Of a stretch of 37,587 bases of DNA, positions 5,019 to 37,341 are shown piece after piece. Under the pieces are notes generated by a model that worked only from the letters and a program-made list of their open reading frames with translations, was not told the origin of the DNA and did not search any database. The stretch lies in NCBI GenBank assembly GCA_029563245.1, contig JAKQSG010000059.1, forward strand, positions 1 through 37,587. Reading direction: 5' to 3'. The first letter of the stretch is position 1, and each line of letters opens with the position of its first letter. The position numbers and the translations under genes were made by a program. Source of the stretch: Candidatus Omnitrophota bacterium (GTDB lineage: Bacteria; Omnitrophota; Gorgyraeia; Gygaellales; Profunditerraquicolaceae).

Positions 5019-5031
5019 GGGAGGTCTGATA

Positions 5032-5853: not shown

Positions 5854-5864
5854 CATAATAAAAT

Positions 5865-7870: not shown

Positions 7871-7871
7871 C

Positions 7872-9136: not shown

Positions 9137-9137
9137 T

Positions 9138-10010: not shown

Positions 10011-13000
10011 TGAATCTTCCTGAGTTCGGAGTAAAAAGGCCGGTTACCAATTTAATGATTTTCTTCGCTATTATCATCCTGGCAGCTTATTCTTTAAGCC
10101 GCTTGGGTGTAGATATGATGCCTGAGATCGAACCTCCCTCAATAAGCGTTATATCTTCTTATGAAGGGGCAAGTCCTGAAGATGTAGAGATAAAGGTAAC
10201 TGAAGTCCTGGAGAATCAATTAAGCACCACCCCCGGACTGGAGAAGATAACCTCTGTTTCATCTGAAGGCTCCTCCGTTATAAGACTTAAGTTTATCTGG
10301 GGGACTAACCTTGACGAGGCCTCTAATGATATACGTGACCGTATAGAACGCGCCAAGCTCTTGCTTCCCGATATACCGGATGAAATGGATAACCCGGCTA
10401 TTTTCAAATTTAATACCGCAAATATCCCGATTATCTATTTAGGCATAACCGCAACGCAAACTTATCCTGATTTATATGATCTGATTGATCAAGGATTAGG
10501 GGATGCCTTAAGGCAGTTGCCCGGGGTAGGCACGGTTCAAATCCAGGGGGGTGGATTAGAGCGTCAAATTAATATCTGGGTAGACAGGCAGAGATTAGAA
10601 GGCTACGGTTTTTCCATTCTGGATATACAAAATAAACTGCTGAAGGAAAATGTTACCCAGCCGGTAGGAAATTTAAAGACAGGTTTAACTGATTATCTCA
10701 TCAGGATGCCCGGGGAATTCTCTAAGCCTCTGGAGATAAATTCGGTAATTTTAGGCAAGCGTAACGGTAAGCTGATCTATTTAAAAGATGTCGCCAGGGT
10801 TGAAGACAGCTTTAAGGAAATAATAGGGCATGTGCGTATTAATAAAAATCCTGGAATTATGATGATGATACAGAAGCAGTCCGGCACTAATACCGTAGAA
10901 GTAGCAAGGCGCGTTAAGGAAAGATTAAAAGATATAGAAAAAACTCTTCCGGCGGATGTAAAGGTAAATATTATATTTGATACCTCGCAGGATATCATCG
11001 ATTCTCTTGAGTCCCTGCAGTCTTCGGTATGGCTGGGAGTTGTAATGGTAATATTGGTGGTATGGTTTTTCCTCAGAGCCTTCACTCCAAGTTTAATTAT
11101 AGCCCTTACTTTGCCATTTTCGCTTTTGGTAGCTTTTATCTACCTTTTTTTAAGCGGCGGGACAATAAATGTAATCAGCCTTTCATCCCTGGCTATAGTT
11201 GCAGGGATGGTCGTTGATAATGCAATAGTTGTTGTAGATAATATACATAAGAGGCTGGAAAGGGGTAATAGGCCAAATGAAGCGGCTATCTTCGGGGCCT
11301 CAGAGCTATTCTTGGCAATTACAGCCTCGACTCTTACTACCGTGGTTGTTTTTCTGCCGATGCTTTTTATCCCCGGGGTTATAGGAATTATATTCGGCGT
11401 ACTGGCAATGGTTATTTGTGTTACCCTGGCCGCCTCTCTATTTACGGCCCTGACCTTTACCCCTATGGTCTGTTCGCAATGGATGCGGCCTCAGCATAAA
11501 CGAAAACCAGGGATTTTATCTAATTTATACAAGAAATCGGAAGAATGGTTTAAGGGCTGGGAGAATGCTTACGGGAGGGGGTTAGGTTTTTCCTTAAGGC
11601 ATAAGAAATTCGTATTGTTAATATTCTTAGCCGTATTTATCTGCGTATTATTTCTTTCACCTTTTGTGGGGAATGAATTCATGCCGGAAGAAGACTCCGG
11701 AGATTTGCGTATTACAGTTTATCTGCCCATAGGGACTCGCATCGAAGAGACGGATAAAGCTGCTCAAAGGATTGAAGATATGTTGGAGGCCAGCGTTCCA
11801 GAAGCCCAGTTCTATTATGCCAGAAGCGGTTCTATCAGGGGTATGGGAAGGTTGGTAGGTGGTTCTTCGGGCACACATATAATTTCAGCCGGGGCAAAGC
11901 TCATTCCTAAGCACAAAAGAAAGCGTTCAGTTAAAGAGATAGGGCAGACAATAAGGGCAAAGGTAAATACTATCCCCGGGGTCATTAAGACCGATATCAG
12001 CACTGGTAATCCCCTGGGCAGGATTGTCGCCGGTACGAGCGGCAAGGCTGTGCAGCTTGATATTATAGGCCATTCTTTTAAAGAGACAGATGCCTTGGCC
12101 GATAAAATAAAACACATACTTGAGAAAATACCTGGAGCAGTTGATGTGAGTGTCTCTCGTGAAGCAAACCGTCCGGAATTAAGGATAGGAGTTGATAGGG
12201 AGAAGGCGGCAAGCATAGGCCTTGATATGCATACGGTATCCCAGACATTAAAGACATTAATGCAGGGGTCAACCGCGACTAAATACCGGGAAAAGGGGAA
12301 TACCTATGATATATATGTAAGGCTTGAAGATTCTTCTCGCGAAAAGATAGAGGATGTAAAGGCCCTTTCTGTTGTTGTCCCCCTGCCCGAAGATAATGTC
12401 TCATTTGAGACTCTGGAAGCAGCAGTCAGCTCAAAAGGGATTAGCCGCAAGCAGATTAAGCTCAGTAATATAGCAAAGATTTACGAATCCAGCGGTCCGG
12501 AGACCATTGAGCGCTTAAACAGAGAGAGGGTGGTTACTGTCGAATGCAATGCATATAAACGCTCATCAGGAAAAATAATAGAGGATTTAAAGAGGGAGGT
12601 ATCTAAGATTACTTTGCCGGGAGATATTTTATTAAGTTTCGGAGGCGAGGCAGAAGAGCAAAAAAAGGCATTTGACGATTTAACCTTACTGTTTATTTTG
12701 GGGATATTCCTTGTTTACATGGTCATGGCTGCGCAATTTGAGTCTATGCTCGACCCTTTTATTATTATGTTTGCCATACCCTTTACCTTTGTAGGCGTGA
12801 TTCTGGGATTTCTGATTACCGGGACAACTTTAAGTATTAATACGTTCTTAGGGATAGTTATGCTTACCGGTATAGTGGTTAACAATGCTATTGTTTTGGT
12901 CAGTTATATTCAAATCCTGCGCTTGAGAGGGTTTAGTATGGAAGAGGCTATTACTAATGCAGGAAGGGAGAGGCTTAGGCCGGTACTTATGACTACTATT

Positions 13001-13186
13001 ACTACATTGGCAGGCTTAATGCCTTTAGCTTTCTCTAATGGCCCGGGCTCGGAAACCTGGCAGCCCTTAGGTATTACCATGATTAGCGGGTTATCGGTTT
13101 CAACGTTCATTACTCTGCTCTTTGTCCCCACGCTTTATGCGTCTTTCCATAAAAAACAGTTATTAAAGAAAGCCGGTGAAATATGA
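10010..13186 (+). CDS. RND superfamily efflux permease (AcrB/HAE1-like)
   Basis: 1058 aa with 12-TM/2-loop architecture. N-terminus RPVTNLMIFFAIIILAAYSLSRLGVDMMPEIEPPSISV and the internal repeat are typical of AcrB-type pumps. Confidence 0.95.
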   Translation: MNLPEFGVKRPVTNLMIFFAIIILAAYSLSRLGVDMMPEIEPPSISVISSYEGASPEDVEIKVTEVLENQLSTTPGLEKITSVSSEGSSVIRLKFIWGTNLDEASNDIRDRIERAKLLLPDIPDEMDNPAIFKFNTANIPIIYLGITATQTYPDLYDLIDQGLGDALRQLPGVGTVQIQGGGLERQINIWVDRQRLEGYGFSILDIQNKLLKENVTQPVGNLKTGLTDYLIRMPGEFSKPLEINSVILGKRNGKLIYLKDVARVEDSFKEIIGHVRINKNPGIMMMIQKQSGTNTVEVARRVKERLKDIEKTLPADVKVNIIFDTSQDIIDSLESLQSSVWLGVVMVILVVWFFLRAFTPSLIIALTLPFSLLVAFIYLFLSGGTINVISLSSLAIVAGMVVDNAIVVVDNIHKRLERGNRPNEAAIFGASELFLAITASTLTTVVVFLPMLFIPGVIGIIFGVLAMVICVTLAASLFTALTFTPMVCSQWMRPQHKRKPGILSNLYKKSEEWFKGWENAYGRGLGFSLRHKKFVLLIFLAVFICVLFLSPFVGNEFMPEEDSGDLRITVYLPIGTRIEETDKAAQRIEDMLEASVPEAQFYYARSGSIRGMGRLVGGSSGTHIISAGAKLIPKHKRKRSVKEIGQTIRAKVNTIPGVIKTDISTGNPLGRIVAGTSGKAVQLDIIGHSFKETDALADKIKHILEKIPGAVDVSVSREANRPELRIGVDREKAASIGLDMHTVSQTLKTLMQGSTATKYREKGNTYDIYVRLEDSSREKIEDVKALSVVVPLPEDNVSFETLEAAVSSKGISRKQIKLSNIAKIYESSGPETIERLNRERVVTVECNAYKRSSGKIIEDLKREVSKITLPGDILLSFGGEAEEQKKAFDDLTLLFILGIFLVYMVMAAQFESMLDPFIIMFAIPFTFVGVILGFLITGTTLSINTFLGIVMLTGIVVNNAIVLVSYIQILRLRGFSMEEAITNAGRERLRPVLMTTITTLAGLMPLAFSNGPGSETWQPLGITMISGLSVSTFITLLFVPTLYASFHKKQLLKKAGEI

Positions 13187-13473
13187 AGATGGTAATGATT
13201 GTTTATAATGAGGCTTTAGATAATGAAGTAATGGAGGCATTAGGGCATGCCGGCGTAAGAGGTTATACTAAAATTAACAAGGCCTTTGGCCGCGGAGATA
13301 AAAGCGGTACTCATTTAGGAACCGATATCTGGCCGGGGTTAAACAATATACTCTATATAGCATGTGAAGAAGCACAGGCGCAGGATCTGCTTAGGAGAGT
13401 AAAGGAATTAAGGAAGACCTTAGGGCATGAAGGGGTTAAGGCATTTATTCTTGCCGTTGAAGAGACTACCTGA
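13183..13473 (+). CDS. Small PII-like (beta-alpha-beta x2) transporter-associated protein
   Basis: 96 aa; start overlaps the RND stop (ATGA). The predicted b-a-b-loop-b-a-b pattern resembles the GlnB/PII fold. Similar small proteins are known next to RND pumps (recalled as the PG0541-type family, unverified). Confidence 0.55.
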   Translation: MKMVMIVYNEALDNEVMEALGHAGVRGYTKINKAFGRGDKSGTHLGTDIWPGLNNILYIACEEAQAQDLLRRVKELRKTLGHEGVKAFILAVEETT

Positions 13474-13492: not shown

Positions 13493-13521
13493 TTGACACT
13501 TACCGCGTGAGATTATAAAAT
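13493..13521 (+). promoter_or_regulatory. Near-consensus sigma70 promoter preceding the PKS-like cluster
   Basis: TTGACA (13493-13498), 17-nt spacer, TAAAAT (13516-13521), about 48 nt upstream of the 13570 start. Confidence 0.5.
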
Positions 13522-13569
13522 AATCCTGTTTATAAATAGTTAAATTTTACTATATAATTTAGAGAGACA

Positions 13570-13830
13570 ATGGATTGGGAAGCTAAAACCAAAGAAAAGT
13601 TTACGTTATTTATCTCTAAGATGCCTCTTTTCCACAGGCATATTACCGAGGCAGCGGTAATAAAAAGAGCGGAGGAGAATGCCAGGGGTAGGTCTGCTCT
13701 TGCGGTAGAAGAAGAAGATGTATTGGCAGCATTTTTTTCCGATGTTCCTTCTCCGTTTTACAGCATGATGGTCAGGTTATTGGAGCAGACAGGTTTTGAT
13801 TACAAGAAATATGGCTTCCCCAAAAGTTAA
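13570..13830 (+). CDS. Small hypothetical protein (PCP-reductase-like domain?)
   Basis: 86 aa. The pattern W..A...L..MP.F.R......IKRAEE.A...G...V.EEDV resembles the small PCP_red domain. Assignment is tentative. Confidence 0.4.
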   Translation: MDWEAKTKEKFTLFISKMPLFHRHITEAAVIKRAEENARGRSALAVEEEDVLAAFFSDVPSPFYSMMVRLLEQTGFDYKKYGFPKS

Positions 13831-13854
13831 AGTTCCTTCCGGAGGTAATCTTAG

Positions 13855-14862
13855 GTGAAAATTGCGGTAATCGGGGCAGGTGCAATAGGTTCCTTAGTAG
13901 CAGGGTATCTTAAGCTAAAAGAAGCAGACGTCTCTCTAATCGGCCGTAGGGATGCGGTAGATGCTATCCGTAAAAACGGCATTGTGATCTCTGGTGTGCG
14001 CGGTGACTTGAAGGTTAATATAGAGGCCTATGAACTGCTTGTTTTAAAGCCGGATTTAGTAATCCTTGCGACTAAGACCCAGGATATAGAGAGGGCCTTA
14101 AGAGATAATCTAGCCTTACTTAAAAATACCCCTGTTCTTACCACCCAGAATGGCATGCAGGCGGAATATATTACAGCTAAGCTTTTATCTAAAGAGAATA
14201 TAATCTCAAGTATAGTTATGTTTGGTGCTACCTATTTAAACCCTGGTAGGGTAACCCATAATTTTGAGGGTGATTGGATAATCGGGAGCGTATTTAAGGA
14301 TAGGCCTAATTACAATATGGTTGAAATAAGCATGGTTTTGGATAGGGCCTTTTCTATGGTTATGGCTGATGATATCTTGGGCAAGAAATATCTGAAAGTT
14401 TTTGTCAATGCTAATAACTGTATCCCCGCAATATTGGGGGTTAGTATGCAGGAGGCGTTTTCCGATCCTCAAATAAGCCGTATAAGCATAGCTCTTTGGG
14501 AAGAGGCCTTTAGTCTGCTTTCAAAACTTGGTATAGGCTTATCTGGGCTTCCCGGGTTTCCGGTTGAGAATGTAACTGGTCTTATTTCAATGCCTAAGGA
14601 AAAAGCGGCATTGGTATTCTCGGGGATAATGACTAAACTTAGCAAAGACCCTCTTTACGGATCAATATTGCAGAGCATAATGCGCGGGCGCAGCTCAGAG
14701 ATAGATTATATTAACGGCGAGTTTGTTTCCCTGGCAGAAAGAAATCAGCTCGAAAGCCCCATTAATAAAAAACTTGTAGAATTAGTGCATAAAGTTGAAC
14801 AGGATAAAAGGTTTCTTACCAAGGAAGAGTTGATTGATAGCCTGAAAGGAGTTTCCAGCTGA
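13855..14862 (+). CDS. Ketopantoate reductase (ApbA/PanE) family NAD(P)-dependent oxidoreductase
   Basis: N-terminal Rossmann MKIAVIGAGAIGSLVAGYL; C-terminal SSEIDYINGEFV...SPINKKLVELV typical of the PanE family. GTG start. Confidence 0.8.
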   Translation: MKIAVIGAGAIGSLVAGYLKLKEADVSLIGRRDAVDAIRKNGIVISGVRGDLKVNIEAYELLVLKPDLVILATKTQDIERALRDNLALLKNTPVLTTQNGMQAEYITAKLLSKENIISSIVMFGATYLNPGRVTHNFEGDWIIGSVFKDRPNYNMVEISMVLDRAFSMVMADDILGKKYLKVFVNANNCIPAILGVSMQEAFSDPQISRISIALWEEAFSLLSKLGIGLSGLPGFPVENVTGLISMPKEKAALVFSGIMTKLSKDPLYGSILQSIMRGRSSEIDYINGEFVSLAERNQLESPINKKLVELVHKVEQDKRFLTKEELIDSLKGVSS

Positions 14863-14863
14863 T

Positions 14864-15463
14864 ATGGATAAAGTTAAAACACCATTCCCGAAATTAAAAC
14901 TAACGGTAAGAGGAGTTTATGGCGAATGCTACCACGGTTACAAAAAAGGGGATGAGATTATTCTGGAGGATTTTACGCATCCGCCGGAACATTTCTGCTT
15001 AGGGTTGGTGCATGCTTTATTTCCGGTTATATACGCTTTAAGTTTTGGGGCAAAGTTTGGTTTTCGTGATAATCAAAGGTCTTTATTGGTTACTTGCCCG
15101 GACGGTGGAAAGCTGGAGTTTGAGGCAGAAATATTTAATAAGGATGGAAGCATAGAAAATATCCCTAAGGACCAAAAACATAAAGGACCTAATCCAAAGA
15201 AGATGGTAATTGAGGTGGTGCAGTCAAAAGGAAAATGTACCTTTGGGTATAAGGTAGGAGATAAGTGGGAGACGACCGGTTTAAAATGCGTTCCCGGATT
15301 ATGCGGCGCCGCATTCCATACCGCATTCCCGGCACTATTTGCATTAAACTTCGGGGCAAAGTTCTTTTTTATGAAAGATCCGAATTCAATTGATACGGTA
15401 ACTTGCCCTGACGGAGGCGATATTGTTTTTAAGGTTACCAGGGTAGAAGAGGGGAAGGAATAA
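14864..15463 (+). CDS. Tandem-duplicated TIGR04076-like Cys-rich protein
   Basis: There are two about 80-aa repeats (aa 11-91 and 113-193). Each has C..GYK.GD, ...C...FP..(Y/F)AL.FGAKF and VTCPDGG, which matches my recollection of the small TIGR04076 family. Confidence 0.6.
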   Translation: MDKVKTPFPKLKLTVRGVYGECYHGYKKGDEIILEDFTHPPEHFCLGLVHALFPVIYALSFGAKFGFRDNQRSLLVTCPDGGKLEFEAEIFNKDGSIENIPKDQKHKGPNPKKMVIEVVQSKGKCTFGYKVGDKWETTGLKCVPGLCGAAFHTAFPALFALNFGAKFFFMKDPNSIDTVTCPDGGDIVFKVTRVEEGKE

Positions 15464-15467
15464 TTTT

Positions 15468-16730
15468 ATGAATAAGAGAAGGGTAGTTATCACAGGGATA
15501 GGAGTAATATCCCCTAATGGTATCGGAAAGGATGCATGTTTTAAGGGGATGATTTCGGGTAAATCCGGGGTTTGCCGAGTTGATAATTTTGACGTATCAA
15601 TCTTTAATACTAAGATTGCAGCAGAAGTACGCGATTTTGACCCTTTCAAATTAGGGCTCTCCCATGAAGAAGCTATGCGTATGGACAGATACGTGCAGTT
15701 TGGCGTGGTGGCGGGTAATATGGCGGTTAAGGACAGCGGGTTAGATTTAACCCAAGAAGACCCTCAGCGCATTGGTGTCTGCCTTGCTAATGCAATATGC
15801 GGGACAAAATATATGGAGGAGGAGTTTGCCCTTGTTACGGAAGACGGGAAAAAACCCATTAATCCTTCTTTGGTGCGTCCGGACCTTTATGATGCCGCTA
15901 TGTTTAATACGCCTTCTATTGAGTTGAGCGCTAAATACGGGCTGAAAGGTATCTGTAACACTCTCTCTACAGGTTGTACCGCAGGTACAGACTCTTTGGG
16001 ATTTGGTCTGGAGACTATTCAGGATGGAGAGGAAGATATCATGATTTGCGGTGCGGCTGAGGCCCCCATCACTCCTATTACTTTTGGGGCTTTTGATGTG
16101 GTAAACGTATTATCGTCTAGAAACGATGATCCTCAAAAAGCCTCCAGGCCTTTTGATAATAAGCGTGATGGGTTTGTTTTATCTGAAGGGGCGGGTATTC
16201 TGATTTTAGAAGAATTGAACCATGCCTTAAGACGGAATGCCAGGATATATTGTGAAGTTTTAGGCTTCGGGACAAGCTGCAATGCCTTTCATATGACTGA
16301 TCTTCCTTCTGACGGCGGGGCAATGGTTAGCTGTATCAGCCTTGCCTTAAAAGACGCCCAGGTAAAGCCTGAAGAGATTGATTATATAAATGCCCATGGC
16401 TCTTCTACCAGGATGAATGATATATTTGAGACTAGCGCTTATAAATCTATTTTCGGAGAGTATGCCTATAAACTTCCGATTAGTTCCTTTAAATCGATGA
16501 TCGGGCATCCCTTGGCTGCCGCCAATGCCATTGAAATGACCGTCTGTTCTATGATTTTTGAAAAAAACATCCTTGCCCCGACTATAAATCAGGAAGAAAA
16601 AGATCCTCAATGCGATCTTTATTACATTCCTAATAAGGCAATTGATAAAAAAGTTGATACGATTTTAAAGACAAGCAGCGGATTTTCCGGGATTCATTCA
16701 TCGTTAGTATTAAGGAGATATAATGGATAA
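15468..16730 (+). CDS. Type II PKS-like ketosynthase alpha (beta-ketoacyl-ACP synthase)
   Basis: Active-site LSTGCTAGTDSLG (Cys170, codon TGT 15975-15977), NAHGSSTRMND and SMIGHPLAAA. The STGCT(S/A)G and HGS.T..ND forms look like aromatic PKS KS-alpha rather than FabF (ACA(T/S)G, HGTST). Confidence 0.9.
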   Translation: MNKRRVVITGIGVISPNGIGKDACFKGMISGKSGVCRVDNFDVSIFNTKIAAEVRDFDPFKLGLSHEEAMRMDRYVQFGVVAGNMAVKDSGLDLTQEDPQRIGVCLANAICGTKYMEEEFALVTEDGKKPINPSLVRPDLYDAAMFNTPSIELSAKYGLKGICNTLSTGCTAGTDSLGFGLETIQDGEEDIMICGAAEAPITPITFGAFDVVNVLSSRNDDPQKASRPFDNKRDGFVLSEGAGILILEELNHALRRNARIYCEVLGFGTSCNAFHMTDLPSDGGAMVSCISLALKDAQVKPEEIDYINAHGSSTRMNDIFETSAYKSIFGEYAYKLPISSFKSMIGHPLAAANAIEMTVCSMIFEKNILAPTINQEEKDPQCDLYYIPNKAIDKKVDTILKTSSGFSGIHSSLVLRRYNG

Positions 16731-17952
16731 GATTGCTTTAACCGGAATCGGGGCAGTATCCCCTTCGGGAATAGGTAAGCGCCAGCTTTGGGCAAATATT
16801 AAAAGCGGGCGTTCATTTATAAAAGAGATAACCAGATTTGACGCCTCCAGGTATCCTTCCCATATCGCCGGGCAGATAGATGATCTTGAAAAATACAGTA
16901 CTTTCTCAGAGCGGCTTTTAAAGAAGATTGATGCTTTTTCTCATATGGCCCTGATTGCCTCAGAGCTTGCCTTACAGGATGCAGGTGTCGATATCAAACA
17001 GGAAGATCCTAATCTTGTAGGTATCTTTTTAGGCAATGCCATCGGAGGATGGCTTTATGCCGAAACAGAGCTTCGGGATATGTATATCGAGGGGCGTGAA
17101 GGAGTATCTCCTTATATGGCTTCTGCCTGGTTTCCGGCAGCTCCGCAGGGGCAGGTCTCAATTTACTATGGGATAAAAGGATTTTCCAAGACAGTAGTAG
17201 CGGATCGCGCAAGCTCATTAATGGCTCTTGGTTATGCCAGGAAAATATTGGCTAAGGGTAAATTGAATCTGATCTTATCCGGGGGGATGGAGGCTCCAGT
17301 TTCTCCTTATGCATTATTATGTTGCAATACTTATGGAGGGCTTTCCAGCGATAATCAACATCCGCAGGAAGCCTATCGGCCTTTTGATAAGAGGCGCAGC
17401 GGTTTTGTAATCGGAGAAGGTTCGGGGGTAGTGGTTATGGAGAGTATTGAGAGGGCAAAATCACGCAATGCCAATATCTTGGCTTTAATCTCGGGATACG
17501 GGACAACCTGTGATGGAGTGGATCGTATTAATTCTGCTGTTGATGGAAAGGAGCTAGCCAGGGCAATTAGAATTGCCCTGGAAGATGCCCGGGCAGGAAT
17601 TGATGAAATCGATTATATCAGCTTAGACGGGATAGCTTTAGATATTTGGGATAATTCTGAGGTTGGGGCTATCAGGGAAGTATTTGGAAGCCGCTCAAAA
17701 GATATACCGGTAAGTTGTCCTAAATCTATGTTTGGTAATTTGCTGGGGGCTTCTGGAGTACTGGATATGATTATTGCCATACAGGCGATGGAGCATAGTT
17801 TAATTCCCCCCACGATAAATTTAGACGAGCCCTCAATCGCCGGGCTTAATTATGTTAGTAAGGAAGCAAGAGAACACAGGATTAAAAAGGCGTTGATTAT
17901 ATCCCGGGGAAGGGGAGGGATAAATTCCGCATTAATTATCGAGAAGGCTTAA
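16723..17952 (+). CDS. Ketosynthase beta / chain-length-factor-like subunit with degenerate catalytic triad
   Basis: KS fold, 8-nt overlap with KS-alpha. The positions aligned to Cys/His/His read Arg162 (VVADRASS, codon 17206-17208), Asp (SLDGIA) and Asn (MFGNLLG). Confidence 0.8.
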   Translation: MDKIALTGIGAVSPSGIGKRQLWANIKSGRSFIKEITRFDASRYPSHIAGQIDDLEKYSTFSERLLKKIDAFSHMALIASELALQDAGVDIKQEDPNLVGIFLGNAIGGWLYAETELRDMYIEGREGVSPYMASAWFPAAPQGQVSIYYGIKGFSKTVVADRASSLMALGYARKILAKGKLNLILSGGMEAPVSPYALLCCNTYGGLSSDNQHPQEAYRPFDKRRSGFVIGEGSGVVVMESIERAKSRNANILALISGYGTTCDGVDRINSAVDGKELARAIRIALEDARAGIDEIDYISLDGIALDIWDNSEVGAIREVFGSRSKDIPVSCPKSMFGNLLGASGVLDMIIAIQAMEHSLIPPTINLDEPSIAGLNYVSKEAREHRIKKALIISRGRGGINSALIIEKA

Positions 17953-17964
17953 AAGGAGGATTTA

Positions 17965-19428
17965 ATGAAAATATTATTTGTTATGCCTAAAGTAGGGGCT
18001 TGGGCAACGCATGGGATACACCGTTCTCCCAACCAGCTTTATGCGCACTGGGCAGCATATGTCAGGGATACGCGGGGTTATGCCGATGTTGCGGTTATTG
18101 ATGGTAAGGCTGACCAGCTTTCCATGGAACAATTGGTCGAACAGGTAAAGCAGAAGAGCCCTGATGTGGTTGTTATGGGTGAACAGCTGCACGGCTATGG
18201 CGGATACGGGGTATTGCGTCATTTTAAGGATGCGGCTGTGGAGATTAAGAAAGTTTCGCCTAAGACAAAGATAATTTTCGGAGGTTTATGGTATTCGGCT
18301 ATGCCGGTACCTACCTTGGAAGAAAATCCTGCAGTTGATTTTGTAGTTATGGGCGAAGAAGAATCTTTCGGTGATTTGATTGAGGCTATTGACAAGAATA
18401 GGCCATTAAAAGACGTAGGGGGTGTTACTTCCCGTATAGATGGGCAGATTGTCATGGGGCCGCATAAACCGCTTATGCCGGATTTAGATAAGCTGCCTCT
18501 TCCAGCCTATGATTTATTTCCTATGGATAAATATGTTGGGCATACTTATTGGAAGCCTTTTGTTGATATGGTTACCTCCCGTGGATGTCCTTCAGCATGT
18601 ACATTCTGTTATGAGTGGGACCAGTTTGACCCGCGTTCCCCTTCCGATTTCTTGAAGTGGCGCGCTAAATCTCCAGAGAGGGTTATGGAGGAGCTAAACC
18701 TGCTGCATAAGAAATACGGAGTCAAAGTTGTAGTTATCCAGGATGACAATTTTAATGTTGACCCTAAAAGGGTGCAGAAGTTCTGCGAACTTAAAAAGGC
18801 ATCTAACAATCCGATTAAATGGGTGTCTTTAGGCAGGGCTATTGATTGGGTGAATTGCGAGCCTATACTTCCGCTTATGAAGGAGAATGGTTTATTTATG
18901 GGAGTTTTTGGTATTGAGGTGACGACTCAATCAGAGCTAAAGAAGATCGCCAAAGGTATTACTCTGGATCAAATCAAGAAGACCATTGAAATCCTGCGTA
19001 AAAATGACATTGCTATTGTTGCCGATATAATGATGGGTTTTGACTATGACACGGAGGCTATCATCAAGCAGCGTTTTGAATTTACTGACGCAGTTGATCC
19101 GGATATCATGTGGGTAGGCTATGTTACTCCTGCTCCGAATTCGCCGATGTGGCGGATTGCTTTGAAAAAGAACTGGATTGATCCAAGGAAGGTAGATTTT
19201 AGCACCTGGGATTTCCTGCATCCGGTAATCCCAACGGATTATCTTACTACGGAAGACCTGGGCAGGTTAGGTTCTTGGTGCATGCGGGAATTCTTCTCAA
19301 AGCCAGGGCGCATTAATAGGATTATGGAGAGTAACTTCGATCCCTTGGCAAAGATTTGCTTCAAAGATGTAATGGATGGTATTAATAAATGGGAAGCAGC
19401 TGCCACAAAGGGAGAGGTACAGATATAG
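17965..19428 (+). CDS. B12-binding domain radical SAM enzyme (class B)
   Basis: N-terminal cobalamin-binding Rossmann-like domain; CPSACTFC (CX3CX2C, nt 18586-18609); 487 aa, typical of class B rSAM enzymes. Confidence 0.85.
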   Translation: MKILFVMPKVGAWATHGIHRSPNQLYAHWAAYVRDTRGYADVAVIDGKADQLSMEQLVEQVKQKSPDVVVMGEQLHGYGGYGVLRHFKDAAVEIKKVSPKTKIIFGGLWYSAMPVPTLEENPAVDFVVMGEEESFGDLIEAIDKNRPLKDVGGVTSRIDGQIVMGPHKPLMPDLDKLPLPAYDLFPMDKYVGHTYWKPFVDMVTSRGCPSACTFCYEWDQFDPRSPSDFLKWRAKSPERVMEELNLLHKKYGVKVVVIQDDNFNVDPKRVQKFCELKKASNNPIKWVSLGRAIDWVNCEPILPLMKENGLFMGVFGIEVTTQSELKKIAKGITLDQIKKTIEILRKNDIAIVADIMMGFDYDTEAIIKQRFEFTDAVDPDIMWVGYVTPAPNSPMWRIALKKNWIDPRKVDFSTWDFLHPVIPTDYLTTEDLGRLGSWCMREFFSKPGRINRIMESNFDPLAKICFKDVMDGINKWEAAATKGEVQI

Positions 19429-19439
19429 GGAGGTAATTT

Positions 19440-19670
19440 ATGGATACAAAATCAAAGCTTAAGGAAGTTTTGGCGGATTTATTAAAGGTTAAGCCCGAAG
19501 AGTTAAAAGACGATTTATCCTTGCAGGATAGCATCGGAGTCGATTCAACAGAGATGGTAGAATCAGTTATTGCCATAGAGAAGGCTTTTGGGGTTAAGCT
19601 AAGCCCGAGGGAGATTACAAAGTCATCAAGCATCAATGATATCGAGAAGGTAATCCTTTCAAAGGCGTAA
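19440..19670 (+). CDS. Acyl carrier protein
   Basis: 76 aa with a four-helix ACP pattern. Phosphopantetheine site GVDSTEMVE (Ser36, codon 19545-19547). Confidence 0.85.
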   Translation: MDTKSKLKEVLADLLKVKPEELKDDLSLQDSIGVDSTEMVESVIAIEKAFGVKLSPREITKSSSINDIEKVILSKA

Positions 19671-19705
19671 TGAACTTCGTATTAGGCAAATTGCAGGAGT
19701 GATGC

Positions 19706-20506
19706 ATGCAGATTATTGACTTGAGTCTGCCGATTGATGAAAAAGGATTTGAAGTCCATAAGGTTGATATCGAGCGGATAACCCATAAGGCGGGGGTTGA
19801 AAAATTTAACCGTGTGATTATGGGTAAGACCTTAAGGGGCAAGATTGGTTACCTTTTGGGAAGAAGAATCCTTAAGCCCGTAGACCTTCCGGATGGAGAA
19901 TTCCTCTCCCTTGAGATAGTGCATTCCCCCGTGCATGTAGGAACACACCTTGATTACTCCTTCCATTATGGCACTCGCTCTGAGGGGAGAGAATCTAAGA
20001 CCGCTGATGAGATACCTCTTGAATATTGCTATCAGAATGCAGTGCGCTTAGATTTACGCCACAAAAAAGCAGCTGAAGAGATAACCGCTGAAGACTTAGA
20101 AACCGCCTTAAAAAAAGAAGATTATATTTTAAAACCTTTTGATATTATATTAATCTGGACTGGTGCCGATAAATTTTACGGGACTCCCAGGTATTTTACG
20201 GATTATCCTGGCATAGGTACAACGGCGATAGACTTTATTATTGACCATGGGGTTAAGATTTTTGGCGTGGATACTATGGGTATTGACCGCCCTTATAAAT
20301 TTATGCTTAAGGAATTCATCGATTCAAAAGACCCCGCAAAGTTTTATCCGGCGCATTTTTACGGCAGAAAAAGAGAATTTATTCATATAGAAAGACTGGG
20401 TAATTTAGAAAGCCTTCCTCGGGCATCAGGATTTAAGGTTGCTTGCTTTCCGGTACGGATACGCCAGACCGGGGCTGCCTGGTCAAGGGTAGTTGCCCTT
20501 GTGTAA
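19706..20506 (+). CDS. Putative cyclase family protein (PF04199-type; kynurenine formamidase-like fold)
   Basis: HSPVHVGTHLDYSFH matches the HxGTHxDxPxH metal-binding motif of this family. 266 aa. Confidence 0.75.
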   Translation: MQIIDLSLPIDEKGFEVHKVDIERITHKAGVEKFNRVIMGKTLRGKIGYLLGRRILKPVDLPDGEFLSLEIVHSPVHVGTHLDYSFHYGTRSEGRESKTADEIPLEYCYQNAVRLDLRHKKAAEEITAEDLETALKKEDYILKPFDIILIWTGADKFYGTPRYFTDYPGIGTTAIDFIIDHGVKIFGVDTMGIDRPYKFMLKEFIDSKDPAKFYPAHFYGRKREFIHIERLGNLESLPRASGFKVACFPVRIRQTGAAWSRVVALV

Positions 20507-20542
20507 AATTTGAATCGGTAATGTATGTAAAAGGAGGACTGT

Positions 20543-20983
20543 ATGGGACATACCTGTAATTCGATTATAATCAATGCTCCTTATGGCTTGGTTTTCGATA
20601 TATCCAATGACATCCCCCGCTGGATAGATTTATTCGGCAGTGAATACAAGAAAGCCGAGATTATCAGTAAGGAAGGGGACAAGATCACCTTCCGCCTAAC
20701 TGATGATGAGGATAAATCATGGGTCTCCTGGAGGCTTTTATTCAAAGATGAATATTTTGCTTATGCCGAAAGGTTTGAACCTAAATTTCCTTTTATCTAC
20801 ATGAAGATTATCTGGCTTTATACCTTAAAGCCTGAAGGGGTGGAACTTACCTGGATTCAGCATTTCGAGATGGATGAAAAGGCGAAGTTTACCGATAAAG
20901 AGGTGGAAGGGTTTATTAATAAGCACTCCCAGGAGAACCTTGCTATTTTTAAAAGGGTAATCGAAAAAGAAGCGCAGCTTTGA
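20543..20983 (+). CDS. SRPBCC-fold polyketide aromatase/cyclase (TcmN/WhiE-ORFVI-like mono-domain ARO/CYC)
   Basis: 146 aa. RW..LF.SEY, FRLT.DED..W.SWR and PF.YM.I.W.Y....G...W.Q.F.M resemble my recollection of the TcmN ARO/CYC N-domain. Confidence 0.6.
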   Translation: MGHTCNSIIINAPYGLVFDISNDIPRWIDLFGSEYKKAEIISKEGDKITFRLTDDEDKSWVSWRLLFKDEYFAYAERFEPKFPFIYMKIIWLYTLKPEGVELTWIQHFEMDEKAKFTDKEVEGFINKHSQENLAIFKRVIEKEAQL

Positions 20984-22098
20984 AGAAGACCACCTTTTTT
21001 ATATTATGTTTAGAGGGAGCGGTTTTATCATTTAATGTCGCTGCAGCCGCAGCCTTGATACCTTCGATAGCAAAGGAGTTTGCTCTTTCTCAGTTTATAG
21101 TTGGTAAGGTCATATGGATTTATATGTTGACTTACGGTCTGGCTGCTTTAATCTACGGACCCTTAGTGCGTAAATTCGACGCGCGTAAAATAGAGTTAAC
21201 CTGTATTTTCTTGTTTGCTCTTGCCAATCTTCTGGCGGGCTTATCCGGTAATATAAATACCCTATTCTTGGGAAGGTTCTTTATGGGGTTATTTGGAGCC
21301 TCTGTTATACCGCTTGGTTTAATCTTAATCGGTAAACACAAAGCTAAAGAAAGAAGAGGTAAGTATATCGGGATATTTTTCGGCCTGACCTTTGTGGCTT
21401 CTCTTTTAGGTTTATTTTTAAGTGGGGTTATTTATTGGCGCTGGATATTCTTGATACCGGCTTTATCAGGGTTTATTCTCTGGATAGCCATGTATTTTTA
21501 CCTCCCTAGCTTCAAGGAAGATACAGGAGGATTTAAGTTTAATTACTTTAGGGTGTTTAATGATAAGGCGGCATTTAAGATATTAGCTTATATATTTTTT
21601 ATCAGTCTTATTTATCATGCTATACAACAATGGATGGGAGTATATTTCTCTACCCAGTTAAAGTATACCCAGTTTATTATCAGTATGTTGATAACCTTAA
21701 CTTCTCTAAGCGGTATAGTTGGTGAGTTTTGGGGAGGGTTGCTTGCGGATTCGCTGGGGAGAAGCAGGATAGTTAATATAGGTATAGGATTTATGATCTT
21801 TAGTATCTTCGCGCTCATTTTTAAATTACCTTTTTTTGCCTTTATTCTGATTATGGTAATTTGGGGGTTAGGGTGGACCTTTAACCATGTTGGCCTAGCG
21901 TCCATGCTTACCGATTTGCCTAAAGAATTTCTAAATGAGGCGGCGAGTTTGAACAGCGCAGTGCGTTTTATCTCCGGAGGCATAGGGGTGAGTTTAGGGG
22001 GATTGATTATGTCGCGCAGTTTTAGCTTAGGGTTTATTATTTTCGGTTTTGGGCTTTTGTTTTTATTGTTTTCGGGGAGATTAATTAAAGCTAATTAA
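20980..22098 (+). CDS. MFS transporter
   Basis: 372 aa, about 12 TM helices, GRFFMGLFGA-type MFS motif. TTG start overlaps the preceding stop. Confidence 0.8.
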   Translation: MKKTTFFILCLEGAVLSFNVAAAAALIPSIAKEFALSQFIVGKVIWIYMLTYGLAALIYGPLVRKFDARKIELTCIFLFALANLLAGLSGNINTLFLGRFFMGLFGASVIPLGLILIGKHKAKERRGKYIGIFFGLTFVASLLGLFLSGVIYWRWIFLIPALSGFILWIAMYFYLPSFKEDTGGFKFNYFRVFNDKAAFKILAYIFFISLIYHAIQQWMGVYFSTQLKYTQFIISMLITLTSLSGIVGEFWGGLLADSLGRSRIVNIGIGFMIFSIFALIFKLPFFAFILIMVIWGLGWTFNHVGLASMLTDLPKEFLNEAASLNSAVRFISGGIGVSLGGLIMSRSFSLGFIIFGFGLLFLLFSGRLIKAN

Positions 22099-22116
22099 TA
22101 CTAAGGGGGGATATTC

Positions 22117-22893
22117 ATGGGAGAAGAGCTTAAGGGGAAGGTTGCTATTGTTACAGGGGCTAGCCGGGGCATAGGTAAATCTCTGGCTTTAACTGCGGCA
22201 AGCCTAGGTATAAACTTAACGATCGCAGCACGCAACGAAGGTCCGTTAAAAGAGGCTGCAGATGAAATTTCCAAGAAATATAATGTAGAGGTCCTTGCTT
22301 TACCTTGCGATGTAATGAAATTGTCAGATTTAGAGAACTTAGCCAAAAAGACAAAAGAAAAATTCTCGCGGGTGGATATACTGATTAATTGTGCAGGCGT
22401 TTCTAGCCAGTATCCGTTTCAAGATCAGCCGATCGAAGACTTAGAGAAGCTTGCGCATACTAATTATTTAGGTTATGTTCGCCTTATCCGTTTGGTAATT
22501 AATGATATGATTAAGCAGAAGTCCGGGGCAATTATCAATATTGTCTCCGGATCTACGCTTGTAGACCCGGTACCGAGAAGTTTTATAGTGTATAGTTCGC
22601 TAAAGGTAGGGTTGCGCGCTTTTTCTAAGGGGTTATTTTGGGAATTGCGGGATCACGGCATTAAGGTTACCTCGATTCTTCCCGGAGTAACGGATACGGA
22701 CCTTACCGGCAAACTGGGTAATGTTACCAGCGATACCTCGAGGTTAATGTCGACTAAGGCTATCGAAGATGCCGTAAGGTTTGCGCTGACAGTCCCGGCC
22801 AATGTCTGTCCTTTGGAGATATCGGTCATTAATCAGCAGACACCTTGGGTGGCCCCGGTTATTCCGTTTAAACAGCAGCATCCGGATAAATAA
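22117..22893 (+). CDS. Short-chain dehydrogenase/reductase (putative ketoreductase)
   Basis: TGASRGIG cofactor motif, NCAG, catalytic YSSLK (YxxxK). 258 aa. Confidence 0.9.
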   Translation: MGEELKGKVAIVTGASRGIGKSLALTAASLGINLTIAARNEGPLKEAADEISKKYNVEVLALPCDVMKLSDLENLAKKTKEKFSRVDILINCAGVSSQYPFQDQPIEDLEKLAHTNYLGYVRLIRLVINDMIKQKSGAIINIVSGSTLVDPVPRSFIVYSSLKVGLRAFSKGLFWELRDHGIKVTSILPGVTDTDLTGKLGNVTSDTSRLMSTKAIEDAVRFALTVPANVCPLEISVINQQTPWVAPVIPFKQQHPDK

Positions 22894-23540: not shown

Positions 23541-23932
23541 TGGATAGGAGAGAGGTTAAGAATTTAAAAAAACGCTATCTTATATGGTTCTATAAGAGCG
23601 CTAAAGAATCATTGGATAAGATCGAGCGCAAGTTCACGCAGGTTGAGGTTGACAGGTTTATCCTTAAGGAGTTAAAGTCAAGGCTTAAGGATTCCTCTGC
23701 GGGTAAATTCATAAGGCACTTTGAAGAATATATAGAGAAAAAAGAGAAGGATGGTTTAGGGTTGAAATTTGAGGATAAGAAGTTTAAGCCTGATTATCTG
23801 TTTATCGTTGCTAAATTGCGCGCTATTGAAAAGGCCATTGTAAAAGAATTGGGCAGGAAGGCGCTTGAGGAGATCAAGCTTCTCTATGAGATAGAGATGA
23901 CTGAACGCATATTAGGGAGCAGGGAACATTAA
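23537..23932 (+). CDS. Hypothetical protein (highly charged, helical)
   Basis: 131-aa ORF overlapping both neighbours (4 nt upstream, 1 nt downstream). No recognisable motif. Confidence 0.5.
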   Translation: MMDRREVKNLKKRYLIWFYKSAKESLDKIERKFTQVEVDRFILKELKSRLKDSSAGKFIRHFEEYIEKKEKDGLGLKFEDKKFKPDYLFIVAKLRAIEKAIVKELGRKALEEIKLLYEIEMTERILGSREH

Positions 23933-24837
23933 TGGTCATTGATGCACATAGCCACTGGTTACCGGAAGGCATTATTAATAATGCTCATTTTTATCATAAG
24001 GGATGGGGGGAGATAGAGTCTCAACTTAGGGTTATGGATGAGGCAGGCGTTAGTAAGTCTGTGTTATCCTATCCTACATCCGATGCCCATTTAAGATTAG
24101 GGAGCATATCCGAAGTTGTCCGTATATTTAATGATAATGTAAGCAGAATAATAGAAAAATACCCGGATAGATTTATCGGGGCAGCCATACTTCCGATTGA
24201 TCATGAGCCTGACATGATTAAGGAGTTTAGGCGCTCAACCGAAGATCTGGGTTTTAAGGCGATATCCCTGGCGACTAGTTACAACGGGGTTTACCTGGAT
24301 GATTCTAGATTCATTCAGGTCTATAAAATAGCACAGGATAAAAATATTCCGATCTTTGTGCATTCCCAGATTGTAAATCCCATTGGTTTTGAACGGGTTA
24401 AGGACCCGCTTCTTACCCCGGTAATTGAATATATCTTTGATACTACTATTTGTATCGGCAAGCTTTTGGTCTCTGGTATTCTGCGGGATTACGGGGTAAA
24501 ATTCATCTTTGGCTACTTCGGCGGGGTAGTGCCTTATTTAGCCGGAAGATTCGATTCAACATATCAGATGTTGCGTTCAATGGATTTTGTTGAAGATTTA
24601 AAAGGCAAGCCTACGGATTATTTAAAGAACATTTATGTTGATACTTCGGGAGATAAAACCGAGGCAAATTTCAACGCAGCTATTGAGTTGCTAGGCCCAG
24701 GGCATATTTTATGGGGGAGCGACTATCCGGCGAAAAAGGACCCTTCTGCCAGTATCCAGGCAATCAGGGATTTGAAGATATCCCAAGAGGATAAGGATAA
24801 TATTCTCGGAATCAATTTGTCAAAGCTTATATCTTAA
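23932..24837 (+). CDS. Amidohydrolase_2 family protein (ACMSD/LigW-type metal-dependent hydrolase/decarboxylase)
   Basis: N-terminal VIDAHSHW (HxH) and C-terminal WGSDYP motifs of the PF04909-type TIM-barrel family. Confidence 0.8.
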   Translation: MVIDAHSHWLPEGIINNAHFYHKGWGEIESQLRVMDEAGVSKSVLSYPTSDAHLRLGSISEVVRIFNDNVSRIIEKYPDRFIGAAILPIDHEPDMIKEFRRSTEDLGFKAISLATSYNGVYLDDSRFIQVYKIAQDKNIPIFVHSQIVNPIGFERVKDPLLTPVIEYIFDTTICIGKLLVSGILRDYGVKFIFGYFGGVVPYLAGRFDSTYQMLRSMDFVEDLKGKPTDYLKNIYVDTSGDKTEANFNAAIELLGPGHILWGSDYPAKKDPSASIQAIRDLKISQEDKDNILGINLSKLIS

Positions 24838-24851
24838 AAGGAGAAATTAAT

Positions 24852-25601
24852 ATGCAGATGCAGAAAGAGGTACATTTAACAGGCAAGGATCTGACGAATA
24901 TGGTACAGCTTAGAGCGCAGGATGTAGGTAAATATGCAATAGTACCCGGGCCAAGAGATAGGCTGGATGTTCTATTGAAGAAGTTTGATAACCCGGTGAA
25001 GAATTTTACCTTTATGGAATATTCTATGTATACTGGTATGTTTGAAGGGATAAGGTTAACCGCGATTAACGGAGGGAGGTTTTCTACCGACACCTCCATT
25101 ACTACTGAAGTTATGTGCAATGCCCAGATTAATAATATTATTCGAGTCGGTACCGCCGGCTCTTTAGATGAAAGTATTAAGGTCGGAGACATATTCGTAG
25201 TAGATGAGGTTATCCGCGGCGATGGGGTTACGCCTTATTATGTAGATAAAGATTTTAAAACATTTGCCGACAAAAGAATAGCTGATACCCTATATGAAGT
25301 AGCAAAGGGTATGGGTGTTAATGTGCACCGTGGCAAGGCCTGGACAACAGATGCGCTTTTAAGGGAGACCCGCGAGATAGTTGAGGAAAAGCGCAAGGAG
25401 GGGGCCCTGGTGGTTGATATGGTCTCTTCGACCCTTTTGACTATTGCCCAGACCTATAATATTAAAGCTGGTTCAGTCTTGGCGGTGAGCGATAATGTGG
25501 TTACGGGCGAGATGGGTTTCATGAACCCGTTGTATTATATGGCAGAGGCAAGTATCCTAAAGATTGCCTTGGAGACAGTAAAAAAACTAGAGGGAAAATG
25601 A
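24852..25601 (+). CDS. PNP/UDP family nucleoside phosphorylase
   Basis: IRVGTAGS, GDIFVVDEVIRGDG and VVDMVSS (EME-like position) match the hexameric Udp/DeoD-type nucleoside phosphorylase layout. Confidence 0.8.
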   Translation: MQMQKEVHLTGKDLTNMVQLRAQDVGKYAIVPGPRDRLDVLLKKFDNPVKNFTFMEYSMYTGMFEGIRLTAINGGRFSTDTSITTEVMCNAQINNIIRVGTAGSLDESIKVGDIFVVDEVIRGDGVTPYYVDKDFKTFADKRIADTLYEVAKGMGVNVHRGKAWTTDALLRETREIVEEKRKEGALVVDMVSSTLLTIAQTYNIKAGSVLAVSDNVVTGEMGFMNPLYYMAEASILKIALETVKKLEGK

Positions 25602-37319: not shown

Positions 37320-37341
37320 ATTAAAAGAGGCAACAAAATAG

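Follow-up and report, generated by a model that had tools for sequence, protein, structure and literature searches.

What product does an operon of ketosynthase, cyclase and radical enzyme genes make in an uncultivated diderm bacterium, and does it belong with the aromatic type II polyketide synthases (PKSs)? The question is raised by positions 13570-22893 of a 37,587-nucleotide contig of Candidatus Omnitrophota (JAKQSG010000059.1, assembly GCA_029563245.1), which in its whole length is called the window below. To our knowledge, type II PKSs are known almost entirely from aerobic actinomycetes, and we know of few anaerobic ones with a known product, such as clostrubin and dendrubin. Omnitrophota form a large uncultivated phylum of very small bacteria, possibly host-dependent or predatory. 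A preliminary description of this DNA, made from the letters alone, had proposed a minimal aromatic type II PKS with its first tailoring enzymes. Our analysis leads to the same class, with a probability of about 0.7: the operon is an anaerobe-type ("ancestral", non-actinomycete) aromatic type II PKS operon of Candidatus Omnitrophota, for which an aromatic polyketide product is predicted from gene content.

The first line of evidence is the ketosynthase (KS) subunit KS-alpha. Its Cys170 (STGCTAG), His310 (NAHGSST) and His347 (IGHPL) aligned with the catalytic positions of the actinorhodin ketosynthase (ActKS), of AntD and of FabF, so that the triad is intact and the aromatic-PKS-type motifs STGCTAG and HGSST noticed beforehand are really there. 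Searches against solved structures gave 377 bits for AntD (45% identity) and 374 bits for ActKS (43%), as against 355 bits at most for any FabF, 280 bits for the heterodimer 9s5h and 245 bits for the ishigamide ketosynthase Iga11 (6kxd). KS-alpha and AntD have the motifs STGC(T/A)AG, HMTD and HGSST in common, whereas B. subtilis FabF carries TACATG, HITA and HGTST instead. In a rough neighbour-joining tree, rooted on this single FabF outgroup and containing no characterised chain length factor (CLF) apart from one placed by inference, KS-alpha grouped with AntD, ActKS and the KS-alpha proteins of five related loci, including a Clostridium one, and the KS-beta proteins formed a separate clade. 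Against NCBIfam, KS-alpha scored below the fabF equivalog cut-off (463 versus 494) and above that of the broad "beta-ketoacyl-ACP synthase II" subfamily model PRK07314 (448 versus 387 bits).

KS-alpha is translationally coupled to KS-beta, whose start overlaps the KS-alpha stop by 8 nucleotides. KS-beta carries Arg, Asp and Asn at the Cys/His/His triad positions, and a family-wide ADRAS motif replaces the active-site cysteine region. Actinomycete CLFs have at the cysteine position a glutamine that serves decarboxylative priming. A profile of the KS-beta family scored 430 bits on FabF and 338 on the actinorhodin (Act) CLF, which would make KS-beta a FabF-like dead subunit outside the actinomycete CLF clade. 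The label "CLF-like" holds for a triad-less partner of KS fold and is less certain as to closeness to true CLFs. AntE was absent among the KS-beta matches to solved structures. A representative search with KS-beta returned mostly giant type I PKSs and a few single-domain relatives at 40-57% identity; the relatives included a protein from a Desulfobacterota metagenome-assembled genome (56-57%), one common to C. beijerinckii and C. puniceum (43-44%) and the CLF of Ktedonobacter racemifer (40%). The two Clostridium species are published clostrubin producers, and their CLF, ClrB, has been placed in the most ancestral CLF clade (PMC7693217). As judged from its sequence, KS-beta would fit the "type II KS plus type II FAS" pairing described for many non-actinobacterial pairs (PMC10132072).

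The remaining core genes encode a carrier protein and two predicted cyclases. The acyl carrier protein (ACP) matched PF00550 with 48 bits and has the phosphopantetheine serine motif GVDST. The predicted cyclase of family PF04199 scored 98 bits and contains VHVGTHLDYSFH, a motif of the HxGTHxD type; against solved structures it gave weak hydrolase matches only. The SRPBCC protein fell just under the Pfam threshold (25.4 versus 27.4 bits). Its matches to solved structures were nevertheless specific: TcmN came first (E 9e-25, residues 3-142), WhiE-type cyclases followed at about 1e-23, and the sole other match, 3tfz "Cyclase", was marginal (E = 2). All three proteins had been named as such in the preliminary description, down to the TcmN-like aromatase/cyclase, and its proposal of a minimal aromatic type II PKS is borne out by the KS-alpha scores, the TcmN likeness and the tree. 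We take OxyN to be a member of PF04199. An "ancestral" non-actinomycete architecture has been described with the order KS, CLF, ACP, OxyN-type cyclase and TcmN (PMC7693217). The order in the window, with KS, CLF, an intervening radical S-adenosylmethionine (SAM) gene, ACP, PF04199 and TcmN, matches it. Pfam and NCBIfam scans found in the block no dehydratase or enoyl reductase gene, and no FabZ, FabA, FabI, FabD or FabH. As had been stated before, domain scans detected no malonyl-CoA:ACP transacylase (MCAT) or phosphopantetheinyl transferase (PPTase) among the scanned window open reading frames (ORFs).

Several observations weigh against this assignment. The KS-alpha margin over FabF is just about 20 bits, and the tree that agrees with it is rough and has a single FabF outgroup. 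KS-beta is without the CLF glutamine, having Arg in the ADRAS motif at the cysteine position, and its family profile prefers FabF. Equating its Clostridium relative with ClrB is an inference from co-occurrence in the same species, not from accessions. Family and position are all that demonstrably connects the PF04199 protein with characterised polyketide cyclases, and the short-chain dehydrogenase/reductase (SDR) is as generic as the PanE-like protein. In a lipid pathway of anammox bacteria, too, a heterodimer resembling KS/CLF is accompanied by radical SAM enzymes. Finally, conservation as high as that reported below is unusual for a secondary-metabolite cluster.

Three partners foreign to canonical clusters had been singled out in this operon, namely a B12-binding radical SAM enzyme, a tandem TIGR04076 protein and a ketopantoate-reductase-like (PanE-like) oxidoreductase. 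All three proved real and recur in related clusters. The radical SAM enzyme is of class B, as proposed, with matches to PF02310 (39.6 bits, cut-off 32.1) and PF04055 (73.7 bits) and the motif CPSACTFC (CxxxCxxC). Among named models it reached 200 bits on BchE, where an identity as BchE was rejected against the equivalog cut-off of 481, and 152 bits on HpnJ, again below the cut-off. BchE is thus the nearest named family, and the enzyme is a member of neither. Some Omnitrophota genomes have a second B12-binding radical SAM gene (466 amino acids) about 5 kb before the operon (1329-2729 in locus L001; it is also found on a 612-kb Omnitrophota contig). This gene is absent from the window.

The TIGR04076 protein scored 101.5 bits (NCBIfam cut-off 33) over two repeats, so the tandem structure claimed for it is confirmed. 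When nine TIGR04076 domains from PKS loci were aligned, Cys22, Cys45 and Cys78 were invariant and one His nearly so, which suggests a metal site. A sequence search of the PDB found no solved relative. An AlphaFold model (pLDDT 75.8, pTM 0.61) had no Foldseek match in the PDB at E <= 0.001, its top matches being XdhC-like proteins with TM scores of 0.26-0.32, and the fold therefore offers no functional lead. Mentions of the family that we found in the literature concern other subjects, and none places it in a PKS context. Members of the TIGR04076 family were detected at five type II PKS loci independent of each other. In the Clostridium locus L086, an ACP encoded directly after KS-beta (11260-11787) carries a TIGR04076 domain as an N-terminal fusion, and a second TIGR04076 is free.

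The PanE-like assignment was likewise upheld (TIGR00745 178 bits, cut-off 141, with both PF02558 and PF08546), and its orthologues adjoin TIGR04076 and KS-alpha in the Desulfobacterota locus L084 and in L089. The SDR matched adh_short with 167 bits. Its best solved relatives were gluconate 5-dehydrogenase, clavaldehyde dehydrogenase and FabG, and the actinorhodin ketoreductase (ActKR) was not among the top ones. The protein is accordingly an SDR, as described, of a generic kind, and the structures do not support the PKS ketoreductase role given to it. The exporter of the major facilitator superfamily (MFS), correctly recognised beforehand (PF07690, 146 bits), is present in about 35 of the 57 Omnitrophota loci that span its position and also in L084. 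Alone, the 86-amino-acid first protein had no significant profile match. Of 14 orthologues, all matched DUF2621 and 11 matched PCP_red (best E 1.6e-4), always below the gathering score. The PCP_red likeness attributed to it is thus recovered in most orthologues, but remains sub-threshold and is less frequent than that to DUF2621. This protein was found in 66 loci at 64-98% identity; it is restricted to Omnitrophota loci and absent from the Desulfobacterota locus.

The layout of the locus is given in Table 1. Eleven ORFs, all on the plus strand, lie within 13570-22893 with intergenic gaps of -8 to +38 nucleotides. The preliminary description had spoken of ten genes; the ORF list gives eleven for the same span, while each of the ORFs it listed is confirmed in position and strand and nearly all of its family labels were retained after Pfam and NCBIfam scans. 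Close plus-strand packing runs well beyond 22893, so that the right-hand border had been set too early there. The operon has the same GC content as its flanks. Domain scans located AccA upstream of the block and PlsC downstream of it. At the far end of the window, a tRNA-Leu(CAA) gene (37341-37424, minus strand) overlaps the 5' end of a called ORF for an M1 peptidase-like protein (35490-37418, minus strand), whose true start must therefore be further downstream.

Table 1. Operon, regulatory sites and linked genes in the window, with the median identity of orthologous proteins to the window protein.
Feature	Position	Strand	Basis	Median identity (%)
PadR-family regulator, candidate repressor for the operator	6809..7324	+	PF03551	
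MarR-OEP-MFP-RND-PII efflux module between PadR and operon	7427..13473	+	domain scans	
Sigma-70-type promoter-like site, TTGACA-17-TAAAAT	13493..13521	+	11/12 consensus matches	
Candidate palindromic operator TAGTTAAATTTTACTA (consensus TAGTAAAATTTTACTA)	13537..13552	.	conserved motif	
Small PCP_red/DUF2621-like protein, 86 amino acids	13570..13830	+	orthologue profile matches	69
PanE/ApbA-family NAD(P)H oxidoreductase	13855..14862	+	PF02558 + PF08546, TIGR00745	60
Tandem TIGR04076 protein, two repeats of about 90 amino acids	14864..15463	+	TIGR04076	81.5
KS-alpha, predicted active ketosynthase	15468..16730	+	PF00109 + PF02801; Cys170, His310, His347	84
KS-beta, CLF-like partner, no catalytic triad	16723..17952	+	PF00109 + PF02801; ADRAS motif	80
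Class B (B12-binding) radical SAM enzyme	17965..19428	+	PF02310 + PF04055	90
Acyl carrier protein	19440..19670	+	PF00550, 48 bits	76
PF04199 "cyclase", metal-dependent, OxyN/DpsY-type cluster position	19706..20506	+	PF04199, 98 bits	73
Mono-domain TcmN-type aromatase/cyclase (SRPBCC)	20543..20983	+	TcmN/WhiE structure matches	78
MFS efflux transporter, variable member of the block	20980..22098	+	PF07690 (MFS_1), 146 bits	
Classical SDR oxidoreductase	22117..22893	+	adh_short, 167 bits	82
Amidohydro_2 protein, ACMSD/LigW/gamma-resorcylate decarboxylase group	23932..24837	+	PF04909	
Module: nucleoside phosphorylase, MtnA-like isomerase, class II aldolase-SCP2 fusion, aldehyde dehydrogenase	24852..29003	+	domain scans	
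FadD/MenE-like acyl-CoA ligase, possible module member	32338..33843	+	AMP-binding domain	
AccA (neighbour)				77
DUF212 (neighbour)				72
YkuD (neighbour)				64
ChlI-like ATPase (neighbour)				61

The host is an uncultivated diderm of Candidatus Omnitrophota, in agreement with the Gram-negative host suspected from the sequence. KS-alpha homologues of 84-91% identity filled the first 120 database clusters, all source-named ones being Candidatus Omnitrophica or Omnitrophota, and homologue searches with KS-alpha, TIGR04076 and the aldolase gave, among the matches listed, Omnitrophota only (70-100% identity). One window protein (26521-27522) has a 100% identical counterpart in Candidatus Omnitrophica bacterium ADurb.Bin205, which is probably either the organism of the window or closely akin to it. 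When one genome per species was scanned, 496 genomes had a KS-beta relative, and the best 80 of these 496 were used for the comparisons. Their KS-beta identities were 77-88%, and their submitter labels were Omnitrophota or Omnitrophica in 67 cases and Planctomycetales in 13. Wherever the contig spans it, the whole block was found in the same order (small protein, PanE, TIGR04076, KS-alpha, KS-beta, radical SAM enzyme, ACP, cyclase, SRPBCC protein, SDR). The radical SAM enzyme is the most conserved protein of the block. Comparison of the operon core with its neighbours (Table 1) indicates that the core is constrained at least as much as housekeeping genes. The cluster is not sporadic, being a strongly conserved, apparently vertically inherited lineage operon. 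Since the block is nearly unchanged in at least 80 species, it probably makes an important aromatic compound without oxygen. In one locus (L038), identity to the window was mosaic, with 64-87% from the small protein to KS-beta and 89-97% from the radical SAM enzyme to the isomerase, a pattern that suggests inter-lineage recombination inside the operon.

The operon appears to be regulated in a conserved manner. Promoter-like sites were not above chance in the region (28 versus 24.4 expected). The near-consensus promoter announced in the preliminary description was the top-scoring site, and it holds up by conservation, 56 of 66 sequences having an equivalent promoter (at least 11/12 matches) ahead of the orthologous first gene. 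Just downstream of this promoter lies a 16-bp motif whose consensus, TAGTAAAATTTTACTA, is a perfect palindrome. The window copy, TAGTTAAATTTTACTA, has one mismatch and is the sole match in the window. Of the loci with exact copies of the consensus, 63 have a single copy and one has two; when up to one mismatch was allowed, 66 of 83 Omnitrophota loci had the motif, in most cases 26-104 nucleotides before the first gene. The palindrome is probably a repressor operator, and its xxGT-N8-ACxx layout presumably resembles that of PadR operators. A PadR homologue is the most frequent gene upstream of the palindrome; among 57 loci it ends less than 400 nucleotides away in 29, and within 7 kb, which takes in loci with an inserted efflux module, it is present in 38. 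In the window, PadR and the palindrome are separated by the efflux module at 7427-13473, an insertion that is absent from L001-type genomes; in 11 of 53 loci the gene immediately before the first operon gene encodes an RND protein. No riboswitch was found upstream of the operon with Rfam.

Conservation of this extent also raises the possibility that the aromatic polyketide is a core physiological molecule, e.g. a quinone-like electron carrier or a structural phenolic component of the membrane. Over the 80 species the cluster proteins were more conserved than AccA and the other neighbours, and the syntenic position, the native GC content and the tight, conserved regulation are as expected for such a function. 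The MFS and RND exporters point, however, to an exported compound, the PadR-type repressor suggests conditional expression, and the L038 mosaic suggests exchange between lineages. We consider a core molecule unlikely, while giving it some weight.

A different product would follow if the ketosynthase pair extended an acyl chain and the B12 radical SAM enzyme modified it, giving a specialised lipid or reduced acyl product as in the ladderane "Cluster I" of anammox bacteria. The anammox precedent, the FabF-like nature of KS-beta, the conservation of the block at the level of a core function, the positions of AccA and PlsC on its two sides, the lipid-export-type MMPL and DUF1329 genes of the Desulfobacterota locus and the antiSMASH "ladderane" calls in Omnitrophota, Desulfobacterota and Fibrobacterota all speak for a lipid. 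Yet the block has no FabZ-, FabA- or FabI-type gene, and KS-alpha scored 280 bits on 9s5h, probably the anammox pair, versus 377 on AntD. The radical SAM enzyme reached 68 bits on the ladderane-associated model TIGR04072, whose cut-off is 360; on this score and the lack of FabZ in the block, membership of the ladderane-type clusters was rejected. The TcmN-type aromatase/cyclase and the PF04199 cyclase are always present, and the nearest relatives with a known product are producers of aromatic polyketides. A lipid product is improbable on this balance, and the aromatic type II PKS assignment is kept in what follows.

The functional unit extends beyond 22893, with the operator upstream and an Amidohydro_2 gene and a further module downstream. 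The best solved relative of the Amidohydro_2 protein was an unnamed amidohydrolase (3nur), followed by non-oxidative aromatic-acid decarboxylases; it is similar to 5-carboxyvanillate decarboxylase, ACMSD and gamma-resorcylate decarboxylase. Homologues occur in 48 Omnitrophota loci and in three of the five divergent PKS loci (L084, L086 and L089). In the module, the isomerase scored above the TIGR00524 subfamily cut-off (200.8 versus 185.85), while the phosphorylase and the aldolase, which has an extra SCP2 domain, were below all curated cut-offs. The phosphorylase was closer to uridine and DeoD phosphorylases, with weak matches to HpnG and futalosine hydrolase, and the coenzyme A (CoA) ligase belongs to the FadD/MenE type rather than to that of acetyl-CoA synthetase. 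Downstream of the PKS in the Desulfobacterota locus there are likewise a phosphorylase, an isomerase and an aldolase-SCP2 fusion, and the aldolase came after the isomerase in 16 of 16 Omnitrophota loci. In three more divergent Omnitrophota loci (L022 447-6731, L059 461-6786 and L070 594-6839) the module precedes the PKS genes and stands behind the same promoter and operator, and the first gene after the operator is a 53% homologue of the window CoA ligase (32338-33843). Taken together, the linkage in Desulfobacterota, the invariant gene order and the operator-proximal relocation indicate that the module is linked to the PKS beyond mere adjacency, and the relocation argues for co-transcription and functional linkage.

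The dihydroxyacetone phosphate (DHAP) shunt disposes of 5'-deoxyadenosine and methylthioadenosine (MTA), by-products of SAM enzymes. By analogy, disposal of one of these compounds would be the simplest role for the module. The SCP2 domain on the aldolase and the type of the ligase would also be compatible with a module that acts on the polyketide itself. In that case, the radical SAM enzyme would add a 5'-deoxyadenosyl group, from which adenine would be removed and the ribose cut to a two-carbon aldehyde, to be oxidised and activated with CoA. The futalosine and adenosylhopane pathways are precedents. The weak HpnG and futalosine hydrolase matches of the phosphorylase, the HpnJ/BchE-like radical SAM enzyme, the lipid-binding nature of the SCP2 domain, the FadD/MenE type of the ligase, and the retention of the module with the PKS across two phyla and after rearrangement would agree with it. 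The known adenosylating radical SAM enzymes HpnH and MqnE are not known to bind B12, however, the phosphorylase is closer to the uridine and DeoD enzymes, and DHAP shunt salvage accounts for three of the five genes without new chemistry. Such an adenosylated polyketide seems very unlikely.

That the locus is a set of housekeeping fatty acid synthase (FAS) genes, a FabF/FabB pair with FabG and ACP, would explain the PRK07314 score of KS-alpha (448 bits, above the cut-off of 387) and the NCBI and JGI annotations of these proteins as beta-ketoacyl-ACP synthase II, but is hardly credible and was rejected on the dead KS-beta and the operon content, in which polyketide cyclases, a B12 radical SAM enzyme and an exporter accompany a KS-alpha that falls under the fabF equivalog cut-off (463 versus 494), and FabZ, FabI, FabD and FabH are missing. 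An aryl-polyene or highly reducing type II PKS was rejected as well, the score of KS-alpha on Iga11 (245 bits) being far below those on AntD and ActKS and no dehydratase gene being present.

For the aromatic type II PKS, the following route can be proposed. The KS-alpha/KS-beta heterodimer and the ACP would build a poly-beta-keto chain from malonyl units, with AccA encoded nearby and MCAT and PPTase supplied from elsewhere in the genome, perhaps by FAS as the preliminary description had proposed. The TcmN-type cyclase would close and aromatise the first ring and the PF04199 cyclase a later ring. The Amidohydro_2 protein may remove an aromatic carboxylate, and the PanE-like reductase and the SDR may reduce carbonyl groups. 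The BchE/HpnJ-like B12 radical SAM enzyme would carry out an oxygen-independent C-methylation, oxidation or ring formation, replacing the oxygenases of aerobic pathways, and the phosphorylase/isomerase/aldolase/aldehyde dehydrogenase module would, most simply, clear 5'-deoxyadenosine, an inhibitory by-product of the radical SAM reaction. The Cys-rich TIGR04076 pair might act with the ACP-bound intermediate, probably as a metal-binding accessory. Export could proceed via the MFS protein and, in the window genome, also via the inserted RND pump. A PadR-type repressor bound at the palindrome would probably be released by a phenolic ligand. The product may be a pigment, an oxygen protectant, a toxin or a membrane component. 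It is rather unlikely that the boldest elements all hold together, that is a lineage-defining, near-essential Omnitrophota pathway in which TIGR04076 works on an ACP-bound chain, the radical SAM enzyme replaces oxygenases and the module acts on an adenosylated polyketide.

Type II PKSs of non-actinomycete anaerobes are known already as a kind, and KS-CLF pairs of Omnitrophica have been catalogued (PMC10132072). We found in the literature no account of the accessory set of TIGR04076, PanE and B12 radical SAM enzyme, of the linked module, of the conserved operator or of the phylum-wide constraint. A type II PKS would here be fixed in Omnitrophota and conserved more tightly than neighbouring housekeeping genes, which makes the operon a concrete and very common target for learning the chemistry of Omnitrophota in nature. 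It also provides a first functional context for the TIGR04076 family, as a recurrent partner of a polyketide ACP that is fused to it in Clostridium, and an opportunity to test whether a B12 radical SAM enzyme can tailor aromatic polyketides without oxygen.

Compared with known systems, the best solved relatives of KS-alpha are found in the Photorhabdus anthraquinone PKS AntD/AntE (6smo) and the actinorhodin KS/CLF (1tqy), with which it has the KS-alpha motifs in common. Oxygenases are usual in aerobic aromatic polyketide pathways. The window differs from both systems in a tailoring set without oxygenases and without di-domain cyclases, and in a KS-beta that resembles FabF more than it does the Act CLF, the CLF glutamine being replaced (ADRAS). 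The anammox phylum is related to Omnitrophota. Its ladderane "Cluster I" comprises the amxFabF2/amxFabFmut heterodimer, a dedicated ACP, radical SAM enzymes and FabZ (bioRxiv 10.64898/2026.05.19.726425). It resembles the window in the pairing of an active KS with a triad-less FabF-like partner, in the ACP, in the presence of radical SAM enzymes and in its anaerobic host; unlike the window it has FabZ and no polyketide cyclases, and its similarity is weaker (280 and 194 bits). A survey lists KS-CLF pairs from Candidatus Omnitrophica among 14 phyla, in a largely non-actinobacterial clade whose partner subunit is often classed as type II FAS (PMC10132072). These are probably the same gene pairs as that of the window; the catalogue does not analyse their accessory genes, conservation, regulation or product. 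Some of the "ladderane" clusters that antiSMASH is reported to have called in genomes of Omnitrophota, Desulfobacterota and Fibrobacterota (PMC9902471) may belong to the present cluster family, since its combination of KS-alpha, KS-beta and B12 radical SAM enzyme occurs in just these phyla.

Five divergent loci share KS-alpha (45-65% identity), KS-beta (39-56%), the PF04199 protein (43-46%) and the SRPBCC protein (35-53%) with the window. Four of these loci have TIGR04076, three have Amidohydro_2 and two have PanE. The PF04199 gene adjoins the SRPBCC gene in four of the five, the two being one gene apart in L087. Locus L089 has the order PanE, two single TIGR04076 genes, KS-alpha, KS-beta, ACP, cyclase, SRPBCC, flavin reductase and Amidohydro_2, and L088 has three paralogous B12 radical SAM enzymes and one TIGR04076 gene adjoining the cyclase. 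Nearly the whole window gene set was recovered in L084, from a Desulfobacterota ("Deltaproteobacteria") genome and likewise uncharacterised: the B12 radical SAM enzyme (51%), PanE (50%), tandem TIGR04076 (56%), KS-alpha (65%), KS-beta (56%), ACP, cyclase, SRPBCC protein, MFS transporter, Amidohydro_2 (49%), phosphorylase, isomerase and aldolase-SCP2 fusion. It is without the SDR and the 86-amino-acid protein, has its radical SAM gene upstream of the KS genes, carries two genes of the aldehyde:ferredoxin oxidoreductase (AFOR) family (4851-6824 and 14177-16156) where Omnitrophota have the SDR, and possesses an amine-oxidase-like flavoprotein and the MMPL and DUF1329 export genes.

The comparison with a known product is provided by the clostrubin-type locus L086 of C. 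beijerinckii/C. puniceum, which we take to be the published clr cluster from its species, not from an accession. It has no orthologue of the B12 radical SAM enzyme, no PanE, no PCP_red-like protein and no phosphorylase/isomerase/aldolase module; it has its own PPTases, a FabH-like KSIII and hydrolases, and its TIGR04076 domain is fused to the ACP. The clr cluster has been assigned to the "ancestor 1" clade (PMC7693217). What L086 has in common with the window is an anaerobic host, KS-alpha (45%), KS-beta (43-44%), the PF04199 cyclase (46%), the mono-domain SRPBCC protein (42%), Amidohydro_2 (34%) and TIGR04076 domains.

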